IMG/VR virus record: IMGVR_UViG_2667528065_000005
Length of the DNA stretch: 17,986 nucleotides
Direction: 5' to 3' (one strand)
DNA from: a virus
Taxonomy: Duplodnaviria > Heunggongvirae > Uroviricota > Caudoviricetes
Shown here: one piece after another, positions 1 through 17,328 of the stretch
Layout: each line of letters opens with the position of its first letter
Position numbering within the stretch: position 1 is the stretch's first letter
The notes under the pieces: model-generated
What the model saw: only the letters and a program-made list of their open reading frames with translations
What the model was told of the DNA's origin: nothing
The model's database searches: none
Program-made: the position numbers and the translations under genes

Positions 1-350
1 CCTTAACTGATCGGCATTACAGCCAGATGCTGGGCTTTATTGCCGAAAACTATGATCAGGCGCTGACCATCAACGATGTGGCTGAGCACGTCAAACTTAA
101 CGCCAACTATGCAATGGGGATATTCCAGCGGGTCATGCAATTGACGATGAAACAGTACATTACCGCGATGCGCATCAACCACGTTCGCGCGTTACTGAGC
201 GATACCGATAAAAGTATTCTCGATATTGCCCTGACGGCAGGCTTTCGTTCGAGTAGCCGTTTTTACAGCACGTTCGGCAAATATGTCGGCATGTCGCCGC
301 AACAATACCGCAAACTTAGCCAACAGCGCCGCCAGACGTTTCCCGGCTAA
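1..350 (+). CDS. melR: AraC-family transcriptional activator, C-terminal part (5' end upstream of window); matches melibiose operon regulator MelR
   Basis: Frame open from the window edge to a stop at 348-350. Translation ends ...NYAMGIFQRV...FRSSSRFYSTFGKYVGMSPQQYRKLSQQRRQTFPG, an AraC-type HTH pair. Sits directly upstream of adiA as in E. coli. Confidence 0.7.
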   Translation, partial: LTDRHYSQMLGFIAENYDQALTINDVAEHVKLNANYAMGIFQRVMQLTMKQYITAMRINHVRALLSDTDKSILDIALTAGFRSSSRFYSTFGKYVGMSPQQYRKLSQQRRQTFPG

Positions 351-545
351 AGACGATATCAGTATCAGCCAAAAAAATAGTTTAGCCGTCGATAATAAGC
401 AGTGAAAATAATTTAAAATAATCACATAACGTATTGTTTATAAAAATAAATATTTCAAAAATGTTTGTTTTTCACGCGCTTTACAGCCCGAAAAGGCCGG
501 AAGATACTTGCCCGCAACGAAGATTCCTTCATAACCGGGTAAGCA
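351..545 (+). promoter_or_regulatory. AT-rich melR-adiA intergenic region, presumed adiA promoter and RBS
   Basis: About 195 bp of AT-rich non-coding sequence ending in an RBS-like stretch before the ATGATG start at 546. No promoter elements were mapped. Confidence 0.35.
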
Positions 546-2288
546 ATGATGAAAGTATTAATTGTTGAAAGCGAGTTTCTCCATCAAGACACCTGGGTCG
601 GTAACGCCGTTGAGCGTCTGGCAGATGCTTTAAGCCAGCAAAATGTTACCGTGATTAAATCCACCTCCTTTGATGATGGTTTTGCCATTCTCTCTTCAAA
701 CGAAGCCATTGACTGCCTGATGTTCAGCTATCAAATGGAACATCCGGACGAACATCAAAACGTCAGACAATTGATCGGTAAGCTTCATGAGCGCCAACAA
801 AACGTGCCGGTCTTCCTGTTGGGCGATCGGGAAAAAGCCCTCGCCGCAATGGACCGGGATCTGCTGGAGCTTGTCGATGAATTCGCCTGGATTCTGGAAG
901 ATACCGCCGACTTTATCGCCGGACGCGCCGTTGCCGCGATGACCCGCTACCGCCAGCAGCTATTGCCGCCACTGTTCAGCGCGCTGATGAAATATAGCGA
1001 CATCCATGAATATTCCTGGGCAGCGCCAGGCCACCAGGGCGGCGTTGGTTTTACCAAAACACCCGCCGGACGTTTCTACCATGACTATTATGGTGAAAAT
1101 CTGTTCCGCACCGACATGGGTATCGAACGCACTTCCCTCGGTTCTTTGCTTGACCATACTGGCGCATTTGGCGAAAGCGAAAGATATGCCGCACGCGTAT
1201 TTGGTGCCGATCGCTCCTGGTCGGTAGTCGTCGGTACTTCCGGCTCTAACCGCACCATCATGCAGGCTTGCATGACCGATAACGATGTAGTGGTCGTTGA
1301 CCGTAACTGCCATAAATCCATCGAACAAGGCTTGATGCTGACAGGCGCGAAACCGGTCTACATGGTGCCAAGCCGCAACCGCTACGGCATTATCGGGCCA
1401 ATCTATCCGCAGGAAATGCAACCTGAAACCTTGCAGAAGAAAATCAATGAAAGCCCGCTGACCAAAGACAAAGCCGGGCAAAAACCGTCTTACTGCGTGG
1501 TGACCAACTGCACCTATGACGGCGTGTGTTATAACGCTAAAGAAGCACAGGATCTGCTGGAAAAAACCTCCGATCGTCTGCACTTTGACGAAGCCTGGTA
1601 CGGCTATGCACGTTTCAACCCGATCTATGCCGATCACTATGCCATGCGCGGCGAACCTGGCGATCACAACGGTCCTACCGTTTTCGCCACCCACTCCACC
1701 CACAAACTGCTGAATGCGCTGTCACAGGCCTCTTATATTCATGTACGTGAAGGTCGTGGGGCGATTAACTTCTCCCGCTTCAACCAGGCCTACATGATGC
1801 ATGCCACCACCTCCCCGCTGTATGCCATCTGCGCATCCAACGACGTGGCGGTGTCGATGATGGACGGCAACAGCGGCCTGTCACTGACCCAGGAAGTGAT
1901 CGACGAAGCGGTTGATTTCCGTCAGGCGATGGCGCGGCTATATAAAGAGTTCACCGCTGACGGTAGCTGGTTCTTCAAACCGTGGAACAAAGAAGTCGTC
2001 ACCGACCCACAAACCGGCAAAACCTATGACTTTGCTGACGCACCAACCAAACTGCTGACCACCGTTCAGGACTGCTGGGTCATGCATCCGGGCGAAAGCT
2101 GGCACGGCTTCAAAGATATTCCGGATAACTGGAGTATGCTCGACCCGATTAAAGTCAGCATCCTTGCTCCGGGAATGGGTGAAGATGGTGAACTGGAAGA
2201 AACCGGTGTTCCGGCGGCGCTGGTCACAGCCTGGCTTGGTCGCCACGGCATTGTGCCTACCCGTACCACTGACTTCCAGATTATGTTC

Positions 2289-2320
2289 CTGTTCTCTATG
2301 GGCGCTGTTCTCTATGGGCG
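2289..2320. repeat. Perfect 16-bp tandem duplication (ctgttctctatgggcg x2) inside adiA; +1 frameshift
   Basis: Read directly: unit at 2289-2304 repeated at 2305-2320. Confidence 0.95.
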
Positions 2321-2367
2321 TGACCCGTGGGAAATGGGGGACTCTGGTTAACACCCTTTGCTCCTTC

Positions 2368-2409
2368 AAACGCCACTATGATGCCAACAAACGCCACTAT
2401 GATGCCAAC
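2368..2409. repeat. Perfect 21-bp tandem duplication (aaacgccactatgatgccaac x2) inside adiA; in-frame, duplicates KRHYDAN
   Basis: Read directly: 2368-2388 repeated at 2389-2409. Confidence 0.95.
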
Positions 2410-2436
2410 ACACCGCTGGCGCAGGTGATGCCGGAA

Positions 2437-2480
2437 CTTGTTGAACAATATCCTGACACTTGTTGAACAATATCCTGACA
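2437..2480. repeat. Perfect 22-bp tandem duplication (cttgttgaacaatatcctgaca x2) inside adiA; frameshift
   Basis: Read directly: 2437-2458 repeated at 2459-2480. Confidence 0.95.
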
Positions 2481-2501
2481 CTTACGCGAACATGGGGATT
2501 C

Positions 2502-2549
2502 ACGATCTGGGTGACACCATGTTTGACGATCTGGGTGACACCATGTTTG
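2502..2549. repeat. Perfect 24-bp tandem duplication (acgatctgggtgacaccatgtttg x2) inside adiA
   Basis: Read directly: 2502-2525 repeated at 2526-2549. Confidence 0.95.
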
Positions 2550-2562
2550 CCTGGCTGAAAGA

Positions 2563-2628
2563 AAACAACCCTGGCGCACGGTTGAATGAAGCCTAAAACA
2601 ACCCTGGCGCACGGTTGAATGAAGCCTA
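2563..2628. repeat. Perfect 33-bp tandem duplication inside adiA; the junction creates a TAA stop in the reading frame in use at that point
   Basis: Read directly: aaacaaccctggcgcacggttgaatgaagccta at 2563-2595 repeated at 2596-2628. The junction gcc|taa gives a stop at 2594-2596. Confidence 0.95.
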
Positions 2629-2637
2629 TTCCGGCCT

Positions 2638-2677
2638 ACCGGTGGCGGAAATCACCTCACCGGTGGCGGAAATCACC
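2638..2677. repeat. Near-tandem duplication, 19-nt core (accggtggcggaaatcacc) with period 21 and a 2-nt difference at the junction, inside adiA
   Basis: Read directly: copies at 2638-2656 and 2659-2677 separated by tc. Translates as VAEIT..VAEIT. Confidence 0.9.
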
Positions 2678-2781
2678 CCGCGTGAAGCGTACAACGCGAT
2701 TGTCGACAACAATGTCGAACTGGTATCCATTGAAAATCTGCCAGGACGTATCGCGGCAAACTCAGTTATCCCGTATCCGCC

Positions 2782-2816
2782 AGGAATCCCGATGCTGTCT
2801 AGGAATCCCGATGCTG
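2782..2816. repeat. Imperfect tandem duplication, 16-nt core (aggaatcccgatgctg) with period 19, inside adiA; net frameshift
   Basis: Read directly: copies at 2782-2797 and 2801-2816 separated by tct. Confidence 0.9.
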
Positions 2817-2988
2817 CTGTCTGGTGAAAACTTCGGCGATAAAAACAGTCCGCAAGTAAGTTATTTACGCTCGCTGCAATCCTGGGACCATCATTTCCCT
2901 GGATTTGAACACGAAACAGAAGGGACAGAAATTATTGACGGTATTTACCACGTTATGTGTGTGAAAGCGTAACCACTATTCCGCTGAA

Positions 2989-3015
2989 GGCGTAATTGTT
3001 AAATAACATTACGCC
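2989..3015 (+). terminator. Hairpin just downstream of the adiA stop (8-bp stem ggcgtaat/attacgcc with a partly self-complementary loop)
   Basis: Inverted repeat read directly; only a short T-run follows (ttttaag after a second short GC element). Confidence 0.4.
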
Positions 3016-3089
3016 GCCTGGCTTGAGGCCTTTTAAGTATGGCAACGTTTTCATAAAAATTGCTGCAAACAAAAAATGTCATGCTTTTT

Positions 3090-3117
3090 GCGCGGTCCCA
3101 CCCCGCGCTTTTTTTTG
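3090..3117 (+). terminator. Rho-independent terminator-like element: GC stem gcgcgg/ccgcgc, 7-nt loop, then a 9-T run
   Basis: Read directly: gcgcggtcccaccccgcgc followed by ttttttttt. Confidence 0.55.
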
Positions 3118-3593
3118 CCTGTTATTTATCCTTTTTTTAGCCTGTAAAAAAATATGTATCATGAGAAATTAGCCTATAAAAATATGTAATATTAGTAAAA
3201 CTCGTTATTTTTATGCATGTTTATATTCATCATACAATTATATAACCATTTCCCGGTATCGCTTCGCTTTAGCGAGAACTGGTCTTTTATTCGCACTCAG
3301 GAGTACATGTATGAGGATTTGCAGCGACCAACCTTGTATTGTTTTATTGACTGAAAAAGATGTCTGGATAAGGGTGAATGGGAAAGAACCTATTAGCCTT
3401 AAAGCTAACCACATGGCGTTATTAAATTGTGAAAATAATATTATCGACGTCTCCTCTCTTAATAACACTTTGGTTGCTCATATTAGTCACGACTATGCAT
3501 GCAAAGATTACCTCACGACATCATCAAAGATAACATCCGGTCTCGCAAATACCAGTATGGCAACGTAGCGCTACGCCCATCCTCACCCTTCCA

Positions 3594-3646
3594 TGCCTGA
3601 CGCCAGACGTCTTTCGCGTCTGCCTGACGCCAGACGTCTTTCGCGT
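3594..3646. repeat. Near-perfect 27-bp tandem duplication in adiY (26/27 identical); in-frame, duplicates CLTPDVFRV
   Basis: Read directly: tgcctgacgccagacgtctttcgcgt at 3594-3619 and 3621-3646. Confidence 0.95.
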
Positions 3647-3799
3647 TGCCGCGCAGCATAGCATGATGCCCGCTGAAACTGAGTCAGAAAAGGAACGAAC
3701 ACGTGCATTATTATTCACTGTGCTATCCCGTTTTCTCGACAGTAAAAAATTCCTTTCACTAATGATGTATATGTTACGTAATTGTGTAAGTGACAGCGT

Positions 3800-3841
3800 T
3801 TATCAAATTATTGAAAGCGATTATCAAATTATTGAAAGCGA
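3800..3841. repeat. Perfect 21-bp tandem duplication in adiY (ttatcaaattattgaaagcga x2); duplicates YQIIESD
   Basis: Read directly: 3800-3820 repeated at 3821-3841. Confidence 0.95.
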
Positions 3842-4267
3842 TATCCACAAAGACTGGAATCTTAGTATGGTAGCCAGTTGTTTATGTCTTAGCCCAAGTC
3901 TGTTAAAGAAAAAGCTGAAAAGCGAAAACACCAGTTATAGCCAAATAATCACCCACCTGCCGCATGCGTTATGCCGTAAATGAATTAATGATGGACGGTA
4001 AAAATATCTCTCAGGTATCACAGTCCTGCGGCTACAACAGTACGTCGTACTTTATTTCTGTCTTTAAAGACTTCTACGGTATGACGCCGCTGCATTATGT
4101 TAGTCAGCACAGAGAACGCACTGTCGCCTGATTTTTAACCTTAACGAAGAGCTATATTAATAACGGCATCAGCGATAACCCGGCCGATAATAATTCAACT
4201 ATCGAATGCAGGCGTATGATATGACGTAATTTATTGTCACGAAGCTCGCCTTCGCAGGAGTTTAATT

Positions 4268-4777
4268 ATGTCTTCGGATGCTGATGCTCACAAAGTGGGC
4301 TTAATCCCCGTCACCCTGATGGTGTCGGGGAATATTATGGGGTCAGGTGTTTTTCTGTTACCTGCAAACCTGGCCTCCACTGGCGGGATTGCTATTTATG
4401 GATGGTTGGTGACGATTATCGGTGCGCTGTCGGTGCGCTGGGGCTCTCGATGGTATACGCCAAAATGTCGTTCCTCGACCCAAGTCCTGGTGGTTCTTAC
4501 GCTTACGCCCGCCGCTGCTTTGGCCCGTTTCTCGGTTATCAAACCAACGTCCTCTACTGGCTGGCCTGCTGGATCGGCAATATCGCCATGGTGGTCATTG
4601 GCGTAGGATATTTAAGTTACTTCTTCCCGATTCTGAAAGATCCATTGGTATTAACCATCACCTGCGTCGTGGTGCTGTGGATCTTCGTCCTGCTGAACAT
4701 TGTCGGTCCGAAAATGATCACCCGCGTACAGGCCGTTGCTACCGTGCTGGCGCTGATCCCCATCGTCGGGATTGCCG
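4268..4777 (+). pseudogene. adiC: Arginine:agmatine antiporter AdiC, 5' portion only; frameshifted by an 11-bp tandem duplication and cut off by the prophage junction
   Basis: [54 protein letters not shown] in frame 2, then ...[47 protein letters not shown]...IPIVGIA in frame 1. Coding sequence diverges into unrelated DNA after about 4777. Confidence 0.85.
4419..4440. repeat. Perfect 11-bp tandem duplication (tcggtgcgctg x2) in adiC; frameshift
   Basis: Read directly: 4419-4429 repeated at 4430-4440. Confidence 0.95.
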
Positions 4778-4782
4778 GAGGG

Positions 4783-4935
<153 letters not shown>

Positions 4936-8786: not shown

Positions 8787-9953
8787 TTAAACCCCTTTGA
8801 CAACGTCAGCGTTGACCTGTGGAACCCCGATTTCAGCGGCCAGATTCATGGCGGCTATTACCAGGTTACTGACGGCCAGCGGATACAGCAGGCTGACCAT
8901 ATTTTTACGATGACTTCCCGGATTGCTCAGGCGGGCACGTATGGCATCCACTGCGCTGGCGTCCATAATGTCCGTCAGTTGTTTACCGGCCCGTTGCAGT
9001 TTGAACGTCAGAAACTCTTCAAGGTTATTGTCCAGAGGCAGAAGTTCGACCACCTCACAGCGCTGAACGACTTCACGGACTTCCATATTGCGTTCAGACA
9101 GTTTTGTCGCCAGTTCCGGCTGGCCAATCAGCACGATGGACAGCAGTTTTTTGAAACCGGACTCCAGCTCAAAAAAGCGTTTGAGGTGTTTCAGTGTCGG
9201 AATGGGCAGACTGTGGGCCTCCTCAATCACCAGAACGTGGCTGAACCCCGCCTGGCTGCTGTCTTTCAGGACGCGATGCAACTGGCGAAAGCGGGCGTCC
9301 TGACTGCGTCTGATGCTTTCCAGTGGTGCGATGGTACTGATAATGGCTTCGGCAATCGCTGCTGCCTTCAGGGTTTTCCCTTTCACATCGTTGTCTTCCA
9401 TAGCGATGATGTATGGCTCGATAACAATTACCGGCGCATTCTCGCGGTTGATACGTTCAGTCAGGTCGCGGCGCAGCGTGGATTTACCCGCACCGGACTC
9501 ACCGATGACGGCCATAAACCCACCATGACGGGCTGTCTGGTACAACGCCTCACGCACGTAGCGAATATCCGGGGTGGTGAACACATCATCAGAACCCTGC
9601 ATGGCTTCGTCGGCGAACGGGTCACGGAAAAGACCAAACGCTTTTTTGGTTGCTGGAAATAACACCTGTTTTTTGAGTAACATATTCTCTTCCTCACTGA
9701 GGCTCGTTTTATCTGTGGTACCCGCTGTACGGGGCGTGGCCGCGCCCTGTACAGCATCAAAACTCTTCGTTGTATCAATCCCCTGACTTTCCAGCCAGGA
9801 CGCAAGACGCCGGCGCACTTCTCCGGGGCTGGTGCGGGGCCACGCGTTATGATTCACAATCTGGGCCAGCGTGGCCTCAGAAACATCGACAGCTCTCGCC
9901 ACCACCGCCTGTGGAATACGGGCCTCTTTCAGTTGCTGCTTCAGTACCAGCAT
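8787..9953 (-). CDS. MuB-like AAA+ ATPase (transposition target/activator protein)
   Basis: Walker A GESGAGKST and Walker B HVLVIEEAH; N-terminal HTH-like region. Likely start is the ATG at 9953 with GGAGGG upstream (the longest frame extends to 9992). Immediately downstream of the transposase gene. Confidence 0.8.
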   Translation of the reverse strand: MLVLKQQLKEARIPQAVVARAVDVSEATLAQIVNHNAWPRTSPGEVRRRLASWLESQGIDTTKSFDAVQGAATPRTAGTTDKTSLSEEENMLLKKQVLFPATKKAFGLFRDPFADEAMQGSDDVFTTPDIRYVREALYQTARHGGFMAVIGESGAGKSTLRRDLTERINRENAPVIVIEPYIIAMEDNDVKGKTLKAAAIAEAIISTIAPLESIRRSQDARFRQLHRVLKDSSQAGFSHVLVIEEAHSLPIPTLKHLKRFFELESGFKKLLSIVLIGQPELATKLSERNMEVREVVQRCEVVELLPLDNNLEEFLTFKLQRAGKQLTDIMDASAVDAIRARLSNPGSHRKNMVSLLYPLAVSNLVIAAMNLAAEIGVPQVNADVVKGV

Positions 9954-9963
9954 GTTTCCCTCC

Positions 9964-11733
9964 TCAGTTGCCGTTAACAATGCTGATAACACTGCTGCGG
10001 GCCGGTGTGGTCAGCGTGGCCATGACTTCATCCAGTGCGGCTTCCGGTACGCCGTCCGGGTACTGTGCCGTTAACTGGCGGTAATGTTCCGGCGTCCAGG
10101 TAAGGCCGTCGGCGCTGAACTTATCGCGCAGGGCTTTCGCGGCCTCCACATGAGTCATGGGACGTTGTTCAGTGCGCGGCCCGCGTACGTCAGAGGCCTG
10201 ACCACGCTTCGGCATATAGGCCGGAAGTGTGGTGTCGTCGATATGTTTATACGGGTCAAGCCGCCCGCCGAACGGCAGCGCCTTCGCCTTGCGTGCGGCG
10301 GCTGCATCTGCGGCGTTGTCTGTACCGGTAACCAGCGCTTCGGTTTCTTTTGCCGCCATCTGTGCCGGGGTTTCCGGCAGGGCTTTGTAACTTTCGCCAA
10401 ATACCGCCGCGCCTTCAGCAAAGCCAAACTCGTTCTTTCTGACCTCTTCGACCAGGAAGAACGTCTCGTGGCCGTCCTCACCGGTCAGAACCACCTGTGC
10501 CACATCGCTGCGCCATGGGTTACGGGTAATCATCAGTTTTTCACCAACCAGTACGCCCGGTACCGTTGATACGTCAAATTCAGTGCCCCGGAACGAGACA
10601 CGAAGTTTTGGCGTGACTTTGCGGAGTTCTGGTGCCGCCACAGCCAGTTCACGACATACCTCAACGGAAGGCGCTTTTTTCAGCTGCTCAGCAGTAATCT
10701 TCAGCCAGATATCCGTGCGGGTTTTACCGTGGCGGCTGTGAACAGCCGTGGCGTTAAAGTGGCTGCGCCATTTCGCGGCCAGCGCGTTGAGTTCTTCCAG
10801 ACTGTGAACCGGCCGGAACTTCAGACCCGGCTCCAGCTTGCGTTCGATAATGTCACGCGCCTTTTCCACCTGTCCGGTGGCGCGGGCGTTATGCGGCTTG
10901 TGCGCTATCAGGTCAATGCCCAGTGAGCGGCACATGTTTTTCGTCATACCCGCGGTGTTTGCCGAACCGGGGTCGAGATAGAGTATTTTTGGCACGCCGT
11001 GCAGCACGTCTGCGCCGCCACGCTCCTGCATGGCGTTGATAAGCACAGAACACAGGTTCTCACCGGATTCCGCACCCGTCACATACTCAACGTAAATCCA
11101 GCCGCTGGCATGGTCGGTAATCTCGTAACTCCACACGCGGTCACTGGCGATACGGGCAAGGTTAGCGGGTTTGTTCTTGTAGAACTTCGCGCTGTCCATC
11201 ACCTGCAGCCCTTTGTGTCCATTGCTCAGGTAGTAAAGCGTGCAGAGCGAGGCATCAATCTGCCAGACATGATTGGGATGCAGACTGGCCACTTCGGTAT
11301 GCGGCGCAGGAGCATCCAGTTGTTCCGGGTGCAGGCCATAGTTACGCAGGGCACGACTGATGGCATCTTCGGACAACGGGAAAAACTCACCGGTGGTTTC
11401 ATCTGTTCTGCCTGCGGAGATAAAGCCGTTAGCCCGCAGGGTTTCCACTGCATCCGCGATGGAATAGAGACGCTTACCGTTCTTGCGGGTGGCCTCACGC
11501 AGTGTGGCAGATATCAGCGCGGCTTCGTCGCGGGTCAGGGCGCTGCGTCCGGCATCAGCGCGTTTTTTGCGTTTATCAGTCACAGAGACCTCCTTCAGCC
11601 TGCGCAGCAGAGTGGCGCGGGACATGCCAAGTTCAGCACAGGCAGCGTCGTATATTGCACCGCGTTTACCATGCCCCGCGTCACGTGCCGCGCGGGCGAC
11701 ATAAACCAGTCGTTCAGTCAGGGCAGCATTCAT
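9964..11733 (-). CDS. DDE transposase (Mu A-like / rve-fold)
   Basis: 589 aa. N-terminal HTH-like region, then candidate catalytic residues in HVWQIDAS, LYLDPGSANT and NARATGQVEK. GGAGG upstream of the start. Confidence 0.8.
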   Translation of the reverse strand: MNAALTERLVYVARAARDAGHGKRGAIYDAACAELGMSRATLLRRLKEVSVTDKRKKRADAGRSALTRDEAALISATLREATRKNGKRLYSIADAVETLRANGFISAGRTDETTGEFFPLSEDAISRALRNYGLHPEQLDAPAPHTEVASLHPNHVWQIDASLCTLYYLSNGHKGLQVMDSAKFYKNKPANLARIASDRVWSYEITDHASGWIYVEYVTGAESGENLCSVLINAMQERGGADVLHGVPKILYLDPGSANTAGMTKNMCRSLGIDLIAHKPHNARATGQVEKARDIIERKLEPGLKFRPVHSLEELNALAAKWRSHFNATAVHSRHGKTRTDIWLKITAEQLKKAPSVEVCRELAVAAPELRKVTPKLRVSFRGTEFDVSTVPGVLVGEKLMITRNPWRSDVAQVVLTGEDGHETFFLVEEVRKNEFGFAEGAAVFGESYKALPETPAQMAAKETEALVTGTDNAADAAAARKAKALPFGGRLDPYKHIDDTTLPAYMPKRGQASDVRGPRTEQRPMTHVEAAKALRDKFSADGLTWTPEHYRQLTAQYPDGVPEAALDEVMATLTTPARSSVISIVNGN

Positions 11734-11736
11734 TGG

Positions 11737-12648
11737 TTATGCCTCCAGCCCGTTAATCTGTGGCGTCGGCTCAGTCAGCCATGAAGGCGCGGCATTGCCT
11801 GTTGGCTCATCCGGCAGGTCAAATGTGGAGCGCAGGCTACGCGCTGTGCTTTCCAGTTGACAGACCAGGCCTGCCATGAAGTCTCTGGGGGTATCAATCA
11901 TGTTTTCAGCACAATATGCGCACAGCGTCTCAAAAGCGCTGGACAGTCGAACGGCGATAGCAGATTCCGCCTCAACCGCTAATGCTGTCACTTCCGCCCG
12001 CAGCTTCTTAACCTCTTCATCAGGCTCAGGCGGCTGAATACGGGATTTCTTCTCCAGTCTGGTGGAGAGTGAGTCTATTTTTTCATTTTTGTCAGCGAGT
12101 ACGCGCTGTTGTGCTGCGTTGGTTTCGCGCGCTTCGCGCAGGGCCTGACGCAATTCACGTACTGACATGCGATCAACGTCGTCAAGCGTCAGGCCGGCAA
12201 CTGTGCCGCCGTCGGCCAGTTCGGCAAGCTCTTCGTCGTCTTCTGTCATTAATTCGAAAAGTTTGGCTTTTCCCAAATGTGCCAACGTTGGCACATTTGG
12301 TTTCAGCGCCGGGGATAAGTATTTTGTCGATGCTTGCATCATTCTCACAGATGTCCGGTATGCCAGCCCCAACTCACTTTCAAGAATCTTTATAAACTCC
12401 CCGTGTGGTTCATTTTCCTTAAGGATTATCAGCCGCTTACCTGCCTCCAGCATGGCCTCAGCGCTCTGTGCCATATAAAAGCGTGCCTCATGGACAACAC
12501 GATCGCGCTCATAGGGCAGACCATCGCCGAACTGTTGCATGATTTCCATGCGATGCTGTGTCATGGCGTTTAGACTGACATTGAGATCATCCGACAGCGG
12601 TACCTCGACGTTCAGTTCAGTGCTAACCGGTGATTTGGTGCGTCCCAT
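11737..12648 (-). CDS. Hypothetical phage protein (303 aa) with a coiled-coil-like acidic central region
   Basis: Long ORF with AAGGAG upstream of the start; lies between the Ner-like genes and the transposase. Confidence 0.55.
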   Translation of the reverse strand: MGRTKSPVSTELNVEVPLSDDLNVSLNAMTQHRMEIMQQFGDGLPYERDRVVHEARFYMAQSAEAMLEAGKRLIILKENEPHGEFIKILESELGLAYRTSVRMMQASTKYLSPALKPNVPTLAHLGKAKLFELMTEDDEELAELADGGTVAGLTLDDVDRMSVRELRQALREARETNAAQQRVLADKNEKIDSLSTRLEKKSRIQPPEPDEEVKKLRAEVTALAVEAESAIAVRLSSAFETLCAYCAENMIDTPRDFMAGLVCQLESTARSLRSTFDLPDEPTGNAAPSWLTEPTPQINGLEA

Positions 12649-12658
12649 TGATTACTCC

Positions 12659-12967
12659 TTACAAACGACTACCTGAAATAACACGTTGGTTGATTTCGTT
12701 AATGCGATCCTGTGCACGTGCCATCTCGTTACTGTGGGCCATGGCGATCTGCAGCAACTGGATGCCTGGTGCGAAACGCCCGTTTTCTAGTTTCAGAGCC
12801 AACCCTTCTTCAATGAGCGTGTTAAGTGCCCGGTTGATGTTTGCCGGTGATTCGTGCAGTGCAACCGCTAGTTCCCCGTTAGAAACACCGTTCAAAGCGT
12901 GGCCACGTAAGGCCTTAAGAACGCGCAAAATACGGGTACCTGAGCTTGATGTATTTGGTTTATTCAT
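12659..12967 (-). CDS. Winged-helix/HTH DNA-binding protein (102 aa)
   Basis: GTRILRVLKALRGHALNGVSNGELAVALHESPANINRALNTLIEEGLA resembles an HTH of the IclR/MarR type. 4-bp overlap with the upstream gene. Confidence 0.5.
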   Translation of the reverse strand: MNKPNTSSSGTRILRVLKALRGHALNGVSNGELAVALHESPANINRALNTLIEEGLALKLENGRFAPGIQLLQIAMAHSNEMARAQDRINEINQRVISGSRL

Positions 12968-13188
12968 GACGCCTCCTTAAGGATACCGGGGGTAACTTCT
13001 TTACCTATTGCAACCGATAGATCTCGCAAAATCCGATAAGTCAAACGACCGCGAGGTAGTTCACTTTTACCAGCCCAGCGACTGACTGCCTGGGTGACTG
13101 TTCGTGGTTCATAGCCCGCGTTAAGCGCGAACTGGCGCAAGCTACTGCCTCGTTCAACCAGCCGTGCCCGAACTTGTTGTTTGTTCAT
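12964..13188 (-). CDS. ner: Ner-like DNA-binding protein (Ner/Nlp family)
   Basis: VRARLVERGSSLRQFALNAGYEPRTVTQAVSRWAGKSE matches the recalled Mu Ner pattern (ADVIAGLKKRKLSLSALSRQFGYAPTTLANALERHWPKGE). Divergent from the repressor gene. Confidence 0.65.
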   Translation of the reverse strand: MNKQQVRARLVERGSSLRQFALNAGYEPRTVTQAVSRWAGKSELPRGRLTYRILRDLSVAIGKEVTPGILKEAS

Positions 13189-13276
13189 ATGCACCGTGTT
13201 CCTGTTAGGTTATGATGTACTCTATTGGGTCTATTGTACACACCCAAATGAGTGTGTCAAATTGAGATATGTTCAA
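13189..13276. promoter_or_regulatory. Divergent ner / repressor control region with candidate operators
   Basis: 88-bp gap between divergent genes. Contains inverted repeat ACACAC-N8-GTGTGT (13238-13257) and direct repeat tctattg x2 (13221-13236). Confidence 0.4.
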
Positions 13277-13684
13277 ATGAGTACAAAAGAGAGATTGCGT
13301 GAAGTGATGGATGCTAATGGCATGACAATAAAGGCATTATCTAACTTATCAAAAATTCCATATCGCTCACTTCAAAACTATTTGCGTGGAGAGAGAGAAC
13401 CAAACGCAGAGGCTCTTGTTGCGCTAAGCACCCATTTGGGTGTATCGATCGATTGGCTACTTACCGGTAAAGAACATATTCCATCTAAAGAAATTGTTGC
13501 TGTACCAACACAACATCAATTCAGCCCGTCAGACCTTAAAATGCTTGAACTTCTAAACCAGTTAGATCCTGAGGTTCGGCGAGATCTCATGCGAGGCGCT
13601 GAAGAAAAACAGCGTGTGATTGAGATGGAAAAACAACTGAAGGAATTATCCGCAACGATTGAGCGGTTAAAAAATGTGGGTTAA
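13277..13684 (+). CDS. XRE-family (Cro/CI-type HTH) phage repressor with C-terminal coiled-coil
   Basis: MSTKERLREVMDANGMTIKALSNLSKIPYRSLQNYLRGEREPNAEALVALSTHLGVSIDWLLTG is a typical XRE HTH. Divergent from the early operon. The ORF track's longer frame starts at 13181, but that would overlap ner. Confidence 0.65.
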   Translation: MSTKERLREVMDANGMTIKALSNLSKIPYRSLQNYLRGEREPNAEALVALSTHLGVSIDWLLTGKEHIPSKEIVAVPTQHQFSPSDLKMLELLNQLDPEVRRDLMRGAEEKQRVIEMEKQLKELSATIERLKNVG

Positions 13685-13754
13685 TGTGTTCCTAACGAGA
13701 ACATATAGCAGAAATTATTTGCCATTAAGCAATAAAAAATAAGGTGGATAGCTA

Positions 13755-14762
13755 ATGTCTGAGCAGACCATTGAAGTTAAACACGTTGTAGTTCACATTT
13801 TAGACAAACAACAAAATGGAGACGCTTCTGAGAGATTGAGTCCTGAAGAAGGTCTAGTTACTGAAGCCTCCCAGCGCCTTATAAACGATATTTGTGCAAA
13901 ATATGCAGGACGCACAGGTAAAGGTTATGGCTATTTTGAAGGCGATACGGATAACTATCCTATGGAACGAATGGCTGGGGACTTTCTCGAAGGTGTTGAT
14001 GATTTCTACCAAAGTTCCTGCCGAATGATGCATCACCTGACGGAACGTTCTCAGCGAGAAAACATGGCTACTGGTGGTTATGTTCTTTTTGCAAATATCG
14101 TGATAGGACACAATGAACACCTGTTGATAGCTATTGTAAGCGCTACCATTGGATCCACTGTCACAGATGATTTTAACATCCAAGATAGTACCTATCTTGA
14201 TATTGCTAAGCTGCGTATGGCTGGGCGCATTGACTTAACCGCGTGGGAAAGTGGCGCAGAGCGCTATATCAGTTTTCTTAAGGGGCAAGGTAATGTTTCA
14301 AACTATTTTAAACAGTTCCTCGGCTGTAATGATGTCTTAATCGCCAAACGAGAGTCTGAAAAGTTACGTGACGTTTTAAAAGCATTTGCGGCAGAGAAAG
14401 GACTTGACGGCGCTGAAAAAGATGCATTTCTTAAGAGTGCGTTTGAACACTTACATGCACTAAGTAAGGCTGGTGAACCACTTAGTCTTGAAACCCTTGT
14501 TAATGCCATTTGGCCCCAGGCTCCCGAGGAGTTATCTGGTAAACTTGCTGCTGAAGAGTTGGAGTTATCGGATGGCTTCGTTCCTGATGGTCGAGTCATT
14601 CGGGCTCTGGTATCTTTTAAAGGCAAGTCTAAATATTGGGAACTTAAGTTTGACCGGGAAGGGAAAACTGAAGGCTATATTGATTATGATCCGGAAACAA
14701 ATATTATCACCCTACGTAATGTACCTGAAGAATTTAGGGAAATGTGGATGACTGAGGTTTAA
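13755..14762 (+). CDS. Divergent YejK/NdpA-family nucleoid-associated protein homolog (335 aa), prophage cargo
   Basis: Shared blocks with recalled E. coli YejK along the whole length: GGYVLFANIVIGHNEHLLIAIV, YLDIAKLRMAGRIDLTAWE, YISFLKGQ, YFKQFLGCNDVLIAKRE...AEKGLDGAEKDAF, ITLRNVPEEFRE. AAGGTGG Shine-Dalgarno before the ATG. Confidence 0.65.
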   Translation: MSEQTIEVKHVVVHILDKQQNGDASERLSPEEGLVTEASQRLINDICAKYAGRTGKGYGYFEGDTDNYPMERMAGDFLEGVDDFYQSSCRMMHHLTERSQRENMATGGYVLFANIVIGHNEHLLIAIVSATIGSTVTDDFNIQDSTYLDIAKLRMAGRIDLTAWESGAERYISFLKGQGNVSNYFKQFLGCNDVLIAKRESEKLRDVLKAFAAEKGLDGAEKDAFLKSAFEHLHALSKAGEPLSLETLVNAIWPQAPEELSGKLAAEELELSDGFVPDGRVIRALVSFKGKSKYWELKFDREGKTEGYIDYDPETNIITLRNVPEEFREMWMTEV

Positions 14763-14764
14763 TC

Positions 14765-15970
14765 GTGGCGATTTCATTTGAGATGCTGACAGATCTGTAT
14801 CGTCGTATGGAATTCCAAGAGGGGTTTCGTGTCGGTTCGCTGTTGCTCTTAGATCAGTCCGATTGTGATCTGGTTGATACTTTGCTTGATGATCCTCGTG
14901 AATATGGTCTTTCTATTGATACAGGCACTATCGCTCCAGGTAACACGATCATCCTACGTGTGACGTCACCACGGAGTGGACTGGGACTTGTGTTTTCCAC
15001 CCATGAAAAATTGCTAAATGCTCCAAAGCATCAGTGCCTTGAGCCAGCTAATTACTTCATCCTAGAAACAAAGTTTCGTAATGATGATGAAGATATCCCC
15101 GTTTTCATCAGCAACTACCGGAAGATTCTCGAGTTCGTTAACCTGCTAAAAGAGGCCGCGGCCTACTTTGATAACTCAACTTGTCAGTTAGTTTTTCTGA
15201 AAAAAGAAGTTATCAAGCTATTACCGCACTTCGCTGCAGAAAATGTACAAAATTTGCAAAGAGAGTATCTTGATAACCTTATAGCTTGTTTCAATGATGA
15301 TACCCATAAGGATCAGAAGCTAGATATTCTGATTGAAAGTATCCAAGCAGTTAGTGATGGAATTGATTCACCTCTAGTATTCGCTTATTTACTGGACAAT
15401 ATTCAGCGTCTGCATGAAAAGTTTCTGAAAGGGTATCGTATCTACTCTTCTGGATTCTCTTATGACAAAGTAATGGATCAACTGCGTGCTGCAAAAGTCG
15501 AAGAAATGGGTAAAATCCACAAAGCGTTTTCAGATATCCAGAACCATATACTTGGCATTCCTGTTGCCTCTGTTATCGTAGCTACCCAATTCAAAGTGGC
15601 TACGAAATGGTCAGGCCAAGGGATAACAAACACAATAATTCTTCTGGGATGCATTTTTGCTGCAACGTTAATCTGGCTGGCACTTTCGAACCAGATGCAA
15701 TCTATAAAGGCCTTAGGCGAAGAAATTGAATACAAAGAAAAACAGATTAATAAGGAATATTCCTTCATTAAAGATGACGTGGCTGGTGTATTTAGCAGTA
15801 TTTCTGCGCGACTAGACACGCAGAAACGTACGTTCTGGATTATACGTGGTGTTCTAGTTATGGGAATTATTACCGCTATCACTGTTTATTTTTGGTACAC
15901 AAAACCAGCCCTTGACTTCATGCAGTACTTGATTCACTGCATGAAGTCTTACTATTCGGTCAAAAGTTGA
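14765..15970 (+). CDS. Hypothetical 401-aa protein: soluble N-terminal region plus two or three C-terminal transmembrane helices; coupled to the YejK-like gene
   Basis: GTG start 2 bp after the upstream stop with GAGGT upstream (an alternative ATG lies at 14783). Hydrophobic helices TNTIILLGCIFAATLIWLAL and FWIIRGVLVMGIITAITVYFWY. No family recognised. Confidence 0.6.
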   Translation: MAISFEMLTDLYRRMEFQEGFRVGSLLLLDQSDCDLVDTLLDDPREYGLSIDTGTIAPGNTIILRVTSPRSGLGLVFSTHEKLLNAPKHQCLEPANYFILETKFRNDDEDIPVFISNYRKILEFVNLLKEAAAYFDNSTCQLVFLKKEVIKLLPHFAAENVQNLQREYLDNLIACFNDDTHKDQKLDILIESIQAVSDGIDSPLVFAYLLDNIQRLHEKFLKGYRIYSSGFSYDKVMDQLRAAKVEEMGKIHKAFSDIQNHILGIPVASVIVATQFKVATKWSGQGITNTIILLGCIFAATLIWLALSNQMQSIKALGEEIEYKEKQINKEYSFIKDDVAGVFSSISARLDTQKRTFWIIRGVLVMGIITAITVYFWYTKPALDFMQYLIHCMKSYYSVKS

Positions 15971-16730
15971 GGATAATGAGTTCCTTCTTGCGACTGGATT
16001 TGCCAGTGATCTTGAGGTTGTAGCTGATATCAACCGACTGAATATTTAGACCGTTGAATGCCTGCCGCATTTCCGGGATATCGTTCACCGATATAATCAT
16101 CTTCCCTTTGATCCTGCGTGCTAAATCTGCCATATGATCATAATTTTCTAGTCCGAACTCCACACCATAACCTTCCGTTCCCCAGTATGGAGGGTCACAG
16201 TAGAACAACGTATGCGGGCGATCATATCGTTCTATGCACTGTTGCCAGTCCATGTGTTCTATGACCGTTCTGGAAAGCCGCAGGTGTGCCGCTGACAGTT
16301 CTTCTTCAATACGCAGCAGGTTGAAGCGTGGCGGGGATATGGTGGAGGTACCAAAGCTGTGCTCCGCCACCTTGCCTCCAAACGCCTGCTTCTGAAGGTA
16401 GTAGAACCGTGCTGCACGCTGGATATCCGTCAGTGTTTCTTCCGGGGTGATCTGCAGCCATTTGTAGATCTGCCGGCTGACCAGCGCCCATTTGAACTGG
16501 CGTACAAATTCTTCCAGATGATGTTTTACCACCCGATACAGGTTCACCAGTTCACCGTTGATATCATTAATGACTTCGATCTTGCCGGGTACCTTAAGAA
16601 AATAGAGCGCTGCTGCCCCACAAAACGGCTCCACATAACATTCATGCGCCGGAAACAGCGGCAGGATGTGTTTTGCAAGGCGGCGTTTGCCACCAATCCA
16701 TGGAACGATGGGTAATGTCTGCATTTTCAT
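15960..16730 (-). CDS. Dam-type N6-adenine DNA methyltransferase (D12 class)
   Basis: 256 aa with FCGAAALYF (AdoMet-binding region) and the catalytic DPPY motif. Convergent with, and overlapping by 11 bp, the 3' end of the 401-aa gene. Confidence 0.8.
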   Translation of the reverse strand: MKMQTLPIVPWIGGKRRLAKHILPLFPAHECYVEPFCGAAALYFLKVPGKIEVINDINGELVNLYRVVKHHLEEFVRQFKWALVSRQIYKWLQITPEETLTDIQRAARFYYLQKQAFGGKVAEHSFGTSTISPPRFNLLRIEEELSAAHLRLSRTVIEHMDWQQCIERYDRPHTLFYCDPPYWGTEGYGVEFGLENYDHMADLARRIKGKMIISVNDIPEMRQAFNGLNIQSVDISYNLKITGKSSRKKELIILNF

Positions 16731-16772
16731 AATCTGTAAGCCTTTTACAATTATAAAAAATATGGCAGGCTA

Positions 16773-16794
16773 GTCTGGTCTCGCGAGACTGACT
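16773..16794. promoter_or_regulatory. About 22-bp imperfect palindrome with a perfect 12-bp core GTCTCGCGAGAC; candidate operator or activator site
   Basis: Read directly: agtctg-GTCTCGCGAGAC-tgact, core at 16778-16789. Lies about 48 bp upstream of the dam start and about 190 bp upstream of the first lysis gene. Confidence 0.35.
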
Positions 16795-16835
16795 GAACCT
16801 CGGTCGGCTCACAGCGCATTCCTGTGGGGCGATGG

Positions 16836-16873
16836 CCAGCCCGGTGTTCGGGTACCGGGCTGGTCGTTCTTTC
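16836..16873 (+). terminator. GC-rich hairpin (ccagcccgg / ccgggctgg, 10-nt loop) followed by a T-rich tract; terminator- or attenuator-like
   Basis: Read directly; function uncertain because no plus-strand gene ends just upstream. Confidence 0.3.
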
Positions 16874-16977
16874 AAAGTCATCATGCAGTGCACGTTTACA
16901 TCTTCACTATTAACGCTGTTTAAAATCCGTATCCCGCCACATTTGTGATGCTGTCTCCACCAAACGAGGAGACACAC

Positions 16978-17328
16978 ATGAAAAACCTGAAAAAATTCAT
17001 TCCCCCTGTTAAAAAACCTCGCCTCAGCGGCTGGCTGCTGACCTCAGTGCTGTTGCTGGGCATCATCGCTCTGGTCTCGCCACAGCAGTTGCCTGTTGTG
17101 ATCTACAAGCTGGCACTTATCACGCTGGCAGCAGTGCTGGGTTACTGGCTTGACCGTTCGCTCTTCCCCAAAGCCCGTCCCGGTCAGTACCTGAAACATG
17201 ACGACAGGCTGATGGCTGAAGGGCGTTTCCCGGTACAGACCGGCCTTCACCTGGTGTTTTCTGCTGCGTTAATCCGCCGTGCACTGATTGTTGCAGCGGT
17301 CTGCCTGGCTGTGGCAACAGGACTGTGA
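16978..17328 (+). CDS. Small membrane protein with about three TM segments; holin-like candidate, first gene of the lysis cassette
   Basis: Start MKNLKKFIPP preceded by GAGGAG. Hydrophobic segments WLLTSVLLLGIIALV, VIYKLALITLAAVLGYWL, ALIVAAVCLAVATGL. Directly upstream of the transglycosylase gene. Confidence 0.5.
   Translation: MKNLKKFIPPVKKPRLSGWLLTSVLLLGIIALVSPQQLPVVIYKLALITLAAVLGYWLDRSLFPKARPGQYLKHDDRLMAEGRFPVQTGLHLVFSAALIRRALIVAAVCLAVATGL

Follow-up and report, generated by a model that had tools for sequence, protein, structure and literature searches.

Our analysis of a 17,986-nucleotide stretch of DNA from a virus of the class Caudoviricetes (IMG/VR virus record IMGVR_UViG_2667528065_000005; "the window" hereinafter denotes this whole stretch), which is a portion of an Escherichia coli prophage, centers on two adjacent genes that code for a nucleoid-associated protein (NAP) of the YejK/NdpA family and a predicted membrane protein. 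Judging by their homologies and by what has been established for related pairs, these genes probably constitute a prophage-carried, two-component abortive-infection defense module of the DS-1 or type II PANGU kind. Their most fitting classification is as a prophage-borne, divergent member of the defense family that joins a NAP to a membrane partner (DS-1/type II PANGU), and the system is no longer undescribed. The initial annotation of the window, made from its letters alone, had proposed a candidate abortive-infection or exclusion module. By analogy, that proposal is strengthened, with distant homologs of the two proteins forming the validated DS-1 system and the architecture equaling that of type II PANGU. 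Its view that the pair belonged to no named system still holds for the PADLOC library of 2023, in which gene 1 is unmatched, but not since the DefensePredictor study of DS-1 and the PANGU preprint. The features of the module are the following:

13755–14762, plus strand: gene 1, a YejK/NdpA-family (NA37) nucleoid-associated protein of 335 amino acids (aa; isoelectric point, pI, 4.9), the predicted sensor; ATG start, stop codon at 14760–14762.
14765–15970, plus strand: gene 2, 401 aa, the predicted membrane effector; GTG start; no Pfam family matched; phrog_5023 (E = 6e-143).
14765–15454, plus strand: gene 2 residues 1–230, an acidic soluble region (alpha/beta domain 1–155 plus helices), the candidate NAP-binding "DNA-mimic" domain.
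15431–15604, plus strand: gene 2 residues 223–280, the block with the highest conservation in the family (GYR..FSYDK..KIHK.FSDIQN.ILGIPVA).
15617–15697, plus strand: gene 2 residues 285–311, the strongest hydrophobic (transmembrane) segment (Kyte-Doolittle 19-residue mean up to 2.33).
15830–15898, plus strand: gene 2 residues 356–378, the second strong transmembrane segment (Kyte-Doolittle 19-residue mean up to 1.95).
13718–15926, plus strand: the mobile two-gene cassette, delimited by where DNA homology reaches in Mu-like prophages that have the same pair in another slot.

Six complete E. coli chromosomes, NZ_CP086627.1 among them, match positions 13100–16800 at 100% identity, and RefSeq annotates the identical coding sequences (CDSs) for both genes in such a locus, in agreement with the two open reading frames first called here. 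The product of gene 1 (WP_000003711.1, "nucleoid-associated protein") matches the Pfam NA37 model (PF04245) across residues 12–327 with E = 1e-80, phrog_3767 with E = 7e-117, and the structure of E. coli YejK (PDB 9be2) end to end, from its residue 4 onward, with E = 6.8e-30. Profile searches thus support the YejK/NdpA homology proposed at the outset; given the values against NA37 and YejK, the qualifier "divergent" attached to it was an overstatement at the level of the family. With more specific models, gene 1 attains 186.2 bits against the NCBIfam YejK model, under its equivalog cut-off of 341 bits, and 63.7 bits (E = 1.4e-17, residues 33–258) against the model for the first DS-1 protein, DS1_1_antiphage, such that the housekeeping model scores higher than the defense model. 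Gene 1 and YejK share a full-length two-domain fold family and are both acidic overall. They differ in that gene 1 is accessory prophage cargo, found in 20 of 5426 genomes and always partnered by gene 2, lies below the YejK equivalog cut-off, and has changes at five of the six DNA-binding pore residues.

Truncated versions of gene 1, 100% identical to it across the part that is kept, are seen in Salmonella Typhi (P0140, 198 aa; P0242, 266 aa) on roughly 430 to more than 1000 contigs, which suggests that the module has decayed and yet become fixed in that lineage.

For gene 2 (RefSeq WP_001007985.1, "hypothetical protein"), 166 relatives are found with clusters drawn at 90% identity, and 1305 among the representatives of clusters drawn at 50%, a breadth that marks these as real genes. 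Its N-terminal part is acidic (pI 4.6 for residues 1–215, with 34 D/E against 20 K/R and a net charge of -14), and the corresponding region carries a negative net charge in all but one of the 57 family members compared. An AlphaFold2 model (mean predicted local distance difference test score, pLDDT, 81) consists of the alpha/beta domain at 1–155, helices up to about residue 230 and then four long helices. The conserved block at 223–280 falls on one of the latter (helix 233–275), which runs from the soluble part into the first, weak hydrophobic segment (262–280), and it holds the invariant or near-invariant columns F231, S232, Y233, K250, D257, I258, Q259, P266, A268 and K277. Together with the two strong segments, this accords with the soluble N-terminal region and two or three C-terminal helices that had been read from the translation, and two to four such segments recur in 55 of the 57 family members.

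A scan with PADLOC-DB 2.0.0 (2023) yielded a single weak lead for gene 2, whose residues 262–394 match the KwaA model PDLC00207 (E = 8e-5, 21 bits). Kiwa, too, pairs a membrane protein with a DNA-binding protein, so that one could picture gene 2 as a KwaA-type membrane sensor with gene 1 standing in for the DNA-binding KwaB. We regard this as very improbable: just 3 of the 57 family members match PDLC00207 and one a second KwaA model, no structural support emerges from the PDB, and in the place of a KwaB (DUF4868) partner there is an NA37 protein with no PADLOC match at E ≤ 1. The Kiwa lead was hence rejected.

The clearest relationships of the pair are instead with recently uncovered anti-phage systems. 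DS-1 (working identifier D390) was reported by DefensePredictor (Science 2026; bioRxiv January 2025) as an E. coli transcription unit of WP_000355468.1 and WP_000150292.1. In the account given there, DS-1A is a NAP of 391 aa with NA37 at residues 42–382 and a zinc-ribbon-like N-terminal extension, DS-1B has 404 aa, and in plaque screens of MG1655 carrying the unit, plating dropped by 7.6 logs for Bas1, 2.7 logs for Bas26 and 1.7 logs for Bas3 and T3. NCBIfam release 20 models the two proteins as NF053868 (DS1_1_antiphage, "nucleoid-associated anti-phage protein") and NF053869 (DS1_2_antiphage), with equivalog cut-offs of 330 and 315 bits, respectively. Both are matched by the window pair, which also has the same order of a NAP followed by a partner of about 400 aa. 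Gene 2 aligns with DS1_2_antiphage across residues 74–366 (E = 3e-21, 75.9 bits) and with DS-1B itself, taken from the supplement of that paper, over about 300 residues at 23% identity (BLASTP, E = 6e-10), while the profile of its family recovers DS-1B with an hhalign probability of 96.2%. The motifs FS.[DN]K and IP.A, the most conserved of the family, are common to gene 2 and DS-1B. Apart from their low identity, the two differ in the weaker hydrophobic segments of DS-1B (maximum 19-residue hydropathy 1.56). On these comparisons, the window proteins are homologous to those of DS-1, albeit very distantly, and are not their equivalogs. Neither WP_000003711 nor WP_001007985 appears in the searched portions of the DefensePredictor supplements.

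The second point of comparison is PANGU (Li et al., bioRxiv 10.64898/2026.04.06.716658, April 2026), whose type II version, from an E. coli strain, comprises a YejK-like Pag2A and, as its partner, Pag2B, in which an acidic DMK domain that mimics DNA forms the N-terminal part and a transmembrane domain the C-terminal one. According to this preprint, both genes of PANGU^Ecu were required for defense against T4, the phenotype was abortive, with growth stalled at a multiplicity of infection (MOI) of 10, and T4 escaped through inactivation of denA, which encodes endonuclease II (EndoII). Pag2A fused to green fluorescent protein (GFP) departed from the nucleoid upon infection, and binding of Pag2A to the DMK domain by itself had a dissociation constant (KD) of 19 nM. 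PANGU operons were defined there as bicistronic, with less than 40 bp between the NAP gene and its partner. The genes of the window lie on the same strand 2 bp apart (from the stop codon of gene 1 to the GTG of gene 2, which has a Shine-Dalgarno-like GAGG ahead of it), an arrangement kept in all 56 loci described below. Gene 1 corresponds to the YejK-like component, and the segments of gene 2 at 285–311 and 356–378, with the weaker one at 262–280, to the C-terminal transmembrane domain; residues 1–215, with their acidic charge composition, are the candidate counterpart of the DMK domain. Among the best 150 of the 1305 relatives of gene 2, all are either full-length homologs (roughly 360–465 aa) or partial sequences belonging to this family, and none shares the N-terminal domain only, as would toxSAS-DMK fusions that could provide a link to type I PANGU. 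Prophages go unmentioned in the preprint, whereas the window pair is cargo of Mu-like and lambdoid prophages.

The location of the pair near repressor or lysis genes, a common place for exclusion genes in prophages, along with the predicted membrane localization of gene 2 and the undefined action of the Pag2B effector in the preprint, could also be accommodated by superinfection exclusion without abortive infection, in which a membrane protein and its DNA-binding partner block DNA entry or early steps at the envelope and the host survives. We consider this unlikely. The related PANGU^Ecu is abortive, its trigger is degradation of host DNA by T4 EndoII, which comes after DNA entry, and it is hard to see what a partner bound to the nucleoid would do at the envelope. 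An abortive-infection module remains the preferred interpretation.

The behavior of the pair as a unit was assessed in six-frame translations of 49 viral and about 20 genomic loci that were searched for both proteins. A homolog of gene 1 stands immediately upstream of that of gene 2, on the same strand, in 56 of 56 loci with upstream DNA present, and this obligate pairing persists down to 22% identity in gene 2. The two proteins co-diverge, their identities to the window pair being correlated across loci that are phylogenetically non-independent (Pearson r = 0.975), with gene 2 diverging faster than gene 1.

The pair occupies several quite distinct genomic settings. Close relatives of the window phage (including loci L017–L021) have it in the same slot; other Mu-like prophages, those of Klebsiella included (L022, L033), carry it between the methylase and holin genes; and in lambdoid prophages of Citrobacter, Salmonella, Morganella and E. 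coli it sits, in either orientation, in the Q-holin moron slot. Further afield, it is carried by the Sinorhizobium phage phi2LM21 and a Shewanella contig, lies 2.6 kb upstream of a gene for an Mrr-type nuclease in Paraburkholderia, and in an integrase island of Pseudomonas aeruginosa adjoins AAA_21 and HNH genes and an OLD-TOPRIM plus UvrD (Gabija-like) pair. The last two contexts match the genetic linkage of PANGU-type operons to Gabija and restriction-modification systems (bioRxiv 10.64898/2026.04.06.716658). The recurrence of the pair in unrelated prophages and a defense island, which had been proposed as a check on the module, is thereby borne out. In E. coli it is rare: of 5426 complete genomes, 20 have a match of at least 90% identity spanning almost all of the query (19 of them at 99% or more), and 16 of 5426 have the lambdoid allele. 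Carriage by plasmids was considered and rejected, since PLSDB gave one short, weak match only.

The slot that follows the repressor is empty or filled with other cargo in sister phages, which speaks against the contrary possibility that the two genes are a conserved core set of this phage family. It has no cargo in the EC958 prophage, has a single gene for a 175-aa protein in KP12 and CFSAN051542 (L002/L003 3624–4157) and for a 233-aa protein in a Klebsiella prophage (L011 5125–5826), and contains an unrelated pair of 297 aa and 145 aa in strain 2020S05-235 (L016 3217–4507). All these are annotated as hypothetical and may be further defense or moron candidates. At the DNA level, the cassette is 90.4% identical over 2211 bp to that of L022 and 78% identical to those of L011 and L033 (blastn), and homology of the phage backbone to sisters lacking the pair ends at 13704 and restarts at 15979 (blastn against KP12/L003). 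The GC fraction is 0.38–0.45 over the cargo as against 0.50–0.61 in the phage early region. Thus, the pair is accessory mobile cargo in a variable hot spot, distinct from the phage core, as had been supposed from the window alone, and its linkage to a repressor, which gave the candidate its first description, is a trait of the window phage lineage and not of the module, given its methylase-holin and Q-holin slots elsewhere. Broken copies on viral contigs, with gene 1 spread across three frames (L062 4715–5844) or gene 2 in two pieces (L053 5983–7198), fit such dispensable cargo.

This mobility also bears on a possible regulatory function. NdpA2, an NA37 protein borne by the PAPI-1 integrative and conjugative element (ICE) of P. 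aeruginosa, acts with TprA, encoded by an adjacent gene, to relieve MvaT silencing and activate transfer of the ICE (PMC8565334). By this precedent of a mobile-element-borne NA37 protein with an adjacent partner gene, gene 1 could counter silencing by the host or tune expression of the prophage, with the membrane partner sequestering or releasing it. Its higher score against the housekeeping YejK model and the adjacency of the pair to the lysogeny switch in the window phage would be in keeping with this. However, the partner of NdpA2 is an Arc/ribbon-helix-helix (RHH) transcription factor (PMC8565334) and no relative of gene 2, and the function of the NdpA2-TprA pair is activation of ICE transfer and not defense. 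The window pair moves among phage backbones that are unrelated and islands that are not phages, and most sister phages lack it, which places it outside the regulatory circuit of any single element. Further, homologs of both proteins, cloned alone in MG1655, defended against phage. Given the different partner and the hopping between unrelated elements, a regulatory role appears improbable, slightly more so than exclusion, and the defense interpretation is again favored.

Several observations nevertheless weigh against placing the pair in this defense family. Both window proteins score far under the DS-1 equivalog cut-offs (63.7 against 330 bits and 75.9 against 315 bits), and gene 1 lacks the zinc-ribbon-like N-terminal extension of DS-1A. 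The correspondence to PANGU is drawn from the architecture as described. No PADLOC-DB 2.0.0 model is matched by gene 1, and fold searches, the PDB included, returned no specific relative for gene 2. The activation and action of Pag2B itself "remains to be determined" according to its discoverers (bioRxiv 10.64898/2026.04.06.716658), and the term "DNA mimic" is undemonstrated for gene 2, since a pI of 4.6 is ordinary for a cytosolic domain. The cassette starts at 13718, so that only 37 bp of its own DNA precede the ATG of gene 1. Finally, mutagenesis of YejK has shown that the pore residues R173, R176, K177, R276, R280 and K284 matter for DNA binding (PMC11229321), and gene 1 has Q, a gap, N, G, R and S at these positions, keeping R280 alone. 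As regards this last point, R is kept at the YejK 173 and 276 positions in about half of the gene 1 family, and other basic positions are conserved across it; the DNA-contact surface seems, from the alignments, to have shifted within the defense-associated clade.

Extending the findings on PANGU to the window, we propose the following course of events. Gene 1 would form a dimeric, YejK-like DNA clamp on the host chromosome, while the product of gene 2 would reside in the inner membrane with its acidic N-terminal domain toward the cytoplasm. Degradation of the chromosome by an infecting lytic phage would strip the clamp of its DNA and, once freed, the clamp may bind the acidic, DNA-like domain of the gene 2 protein. 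The signal could then pass via the long conserved helix (residues 233–275) to the transmembrane helices, and the transmembrane part, when switched on, would damage or depolarize the membrane, such that the infected cell no longer supports phage growth. The precedents come from related pairs, which act against phages, need both of their genes and give an abortive phenotype, and for which escape of T4 through denA, relocation of the NAP away from the nucleoid and its nanomolar binding to the acidic domain have been reported; the window pair would be expected to behave likewise, with the signaling steps from clamp-domain binding onward and the membrane-damage output being conjectural extensions.

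The expression of the module in the lysogen can be considered in light of its immediate surroundings, which are as follows:

13277–13684, plus strand: XRE/CI-type prophage repressor, 135 aa (HTH_3, E = 2e-11; Phage_CI_repr, E = 3e-6; PHROG transcriptional repressor families; RefSeq CDS at the same coordinates).
13685–13754, plus strand: intergenic region of 70 bp, with a small AU-rich hairpin after the repressor stop and the ribosome-binding site of gene 1, a Shine-Dalgarno-like AAGGTGG ahead of its ATG.
15960–16730, minus strand, convergent: D12-class (Dam-like) DNA adenine methyltransferase (MethyltransfD12, E = 7e-28), phage backbone and outside the module.

The repressor CDS ends at 13684, leaving a 70-bp gap to gene 1. 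Measurement of this and of the 2-bp gap upholds the tight coupling of the pair, and the orientation shared with the repressor, that had been noted. A consensus scan found no promoter-like or terminator-like site at 13685–13754, as had also been judged from the sequence, and the RNA of this region is not unusually structured (fold z = -0.42). The idea that the pair has a promoter or terminator of its own in the gap was hence rejected; the nearest promoter-like site, matching 9 of 12 positions, is within the repressor gene at 13620–13649. Co-transcription with the repressor is compatible with the sequence, and the lysogen may plausibly express the pair by read-through from the repressor gene in view of the common strand, the 70-bp gap, the lack of a terminator in it and the mere 37 bp of upstream DNA borne by the cassette. 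The hairpin (13684–13706, ATGTGTTC-CTAACGA-GAACATAT) comes right after the repressor stop, is without a T-run and is thermodynamically ordinary; phage KP12 has the same stem with a different loop (L002, about 3585–3608). At the other end, homology of the cassette stops at 15926, making the last 14 or so codons of gene 2 context-specific. These codons and the stop (within 15927–15978) are outside both the cassette and the phage-backbone homology, and it appears that the insertion junction determines how gene 2 ends at its C terminus.

The likeness drawn at the outset to cI-rexA-rexB of phage lambda can be retained in its functional sense. In the Rex system, a cytoplasmic sensor and a membrane effector together give abortive infection, and the window pair is similarly placed downstream of a repressor on the same strand, beginning 70 bp after its stop, with a comparable sensor-effector logic. 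The likeness does not extend to homology: none was found, there being no Rex family among the PADLOC matches at E ≤ 1 (the presence of Rex models in that library is unconfirmed). Moreover, the linkage to the repressor is not conserved among other carriers of the module.

The remainder of the window is made up of phage backbone and host DNA:

12964–13194, minus strand: Ner-like helix-turn-helix (HTH) gene, early operon.
12659–12967, minus strand: winged-helix gene, early operon.
11737–12648, minus strand: DUF3102 gene, early operon.
9964–11733, minus strand: rve/DDE transposase, early operon.
8787–9992, minus strand: MuB-like AAA protein, early operon.
27–350: AraC-type regulator, host flank.
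546–2351 and 2619–2972: Orn/Lys/Arg decarboxylase, host flank, with the C-terminal domain in a separate open reading frame and frame.
3663–3983: short AraC-like fragment, host flank.

With homologs of Gam, GemA and Mor to the left of the MuB-like gene, the content of the minus-strand operon is that typical of the early operon of transposable phages. On the plus strand, the repressor, gene 1 and gene 2 follow in that order, then the minus-strand Dam-type methylase, beyond which are a holin, an SLT transglycosylase and Mu-type head and tail genes. We take this layout, in which the switch separates a leftward early operon from rightward lysis and morphogenesis genes, to be the arrangement of BcepMu-like phages. 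The strongest sigma-70-like site of the region, on the minus strand at 13233–13260 (TTGACA-16-TACAAT, 11 of 12 matches), is directed leftward into the Ner-like/transposase operon, directly opposite the start of the repressor, and probably serves the lysis-lysogeny switch as its early promoter.

The methylase gene overlaps the 3' end of gene 2 by 11 bp at its own 3' end (15960–15970) and is kept in sister phages without the pair. A second variable slot, between methylase and holin, is empty in the window (16731–16978); elsewhere, it contains three small genes in EC958 (L015 5713–7358), a DUF2441 gene in KP12 (L002 4976–6160) and the NAP/membrane pair in the Klebsiella prophage (L011 6695–9319). 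With two variable slots, the methylase is thus flanked by two hot spots. In phi2LM21, too, the homologous pair is followed by a convergent adenine methyltransferase (p68–p66; L074 628–3718), which may be a coincidence or a recurrent association. The left flank of the window (27–4800) is host DNA, in which the split decarboxylase may be a pseudogene. The related prophage in NZ_CP086627.1 adjoins hyfR and a truncated hycH instead, and these different flanks are consistent with random insertion by a transposable phage.

We would go beyond the preferred interpretation only tentatively, toward a reading that we deem doubtful. In this, the gene 2 family would be an uncharacterised membrane effector, with a cytoplasmic alpha/beta sensor domain, a long, conserved stalk helix that enters the membrane and a C-terminal helical hairpin, that acts as a "nucleoid-integrity-gated" pore or channel, gated by a DNA clamp released from the degraded nucleoid; the lineage would represent a subtype of its own, different from PANGU^Ecu and from DS-1 as tested, that is handed to hosts by temperate phages. 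Replicative transposition by Mu-like phages depends on the host chromosome being intact. If the above holds, they could carry a sensor of nucleoid integrity without tripping it themselves. The highly conserved juxtamembrane block and the confident structural model of this family offer concrete residues with which to probe the action of the effector.

The use of a chromosome-coating protein as an alarm for the destruction of host DNA is a very recent idea, founded on a handful of tested operons. To this the window adds a natural setting, namely a cassette that, throughout Enterobacterales, is swapped between moron slots in prophages of the Mu-like and lambdoid kinds, with relatives further afield in Pseudomonas, Burkholderiales, Shewanella and Sinorhizobium phages. 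By means of such swapping among prophages, lysogens may gain protection against lytic phages that degrade the chromosome.

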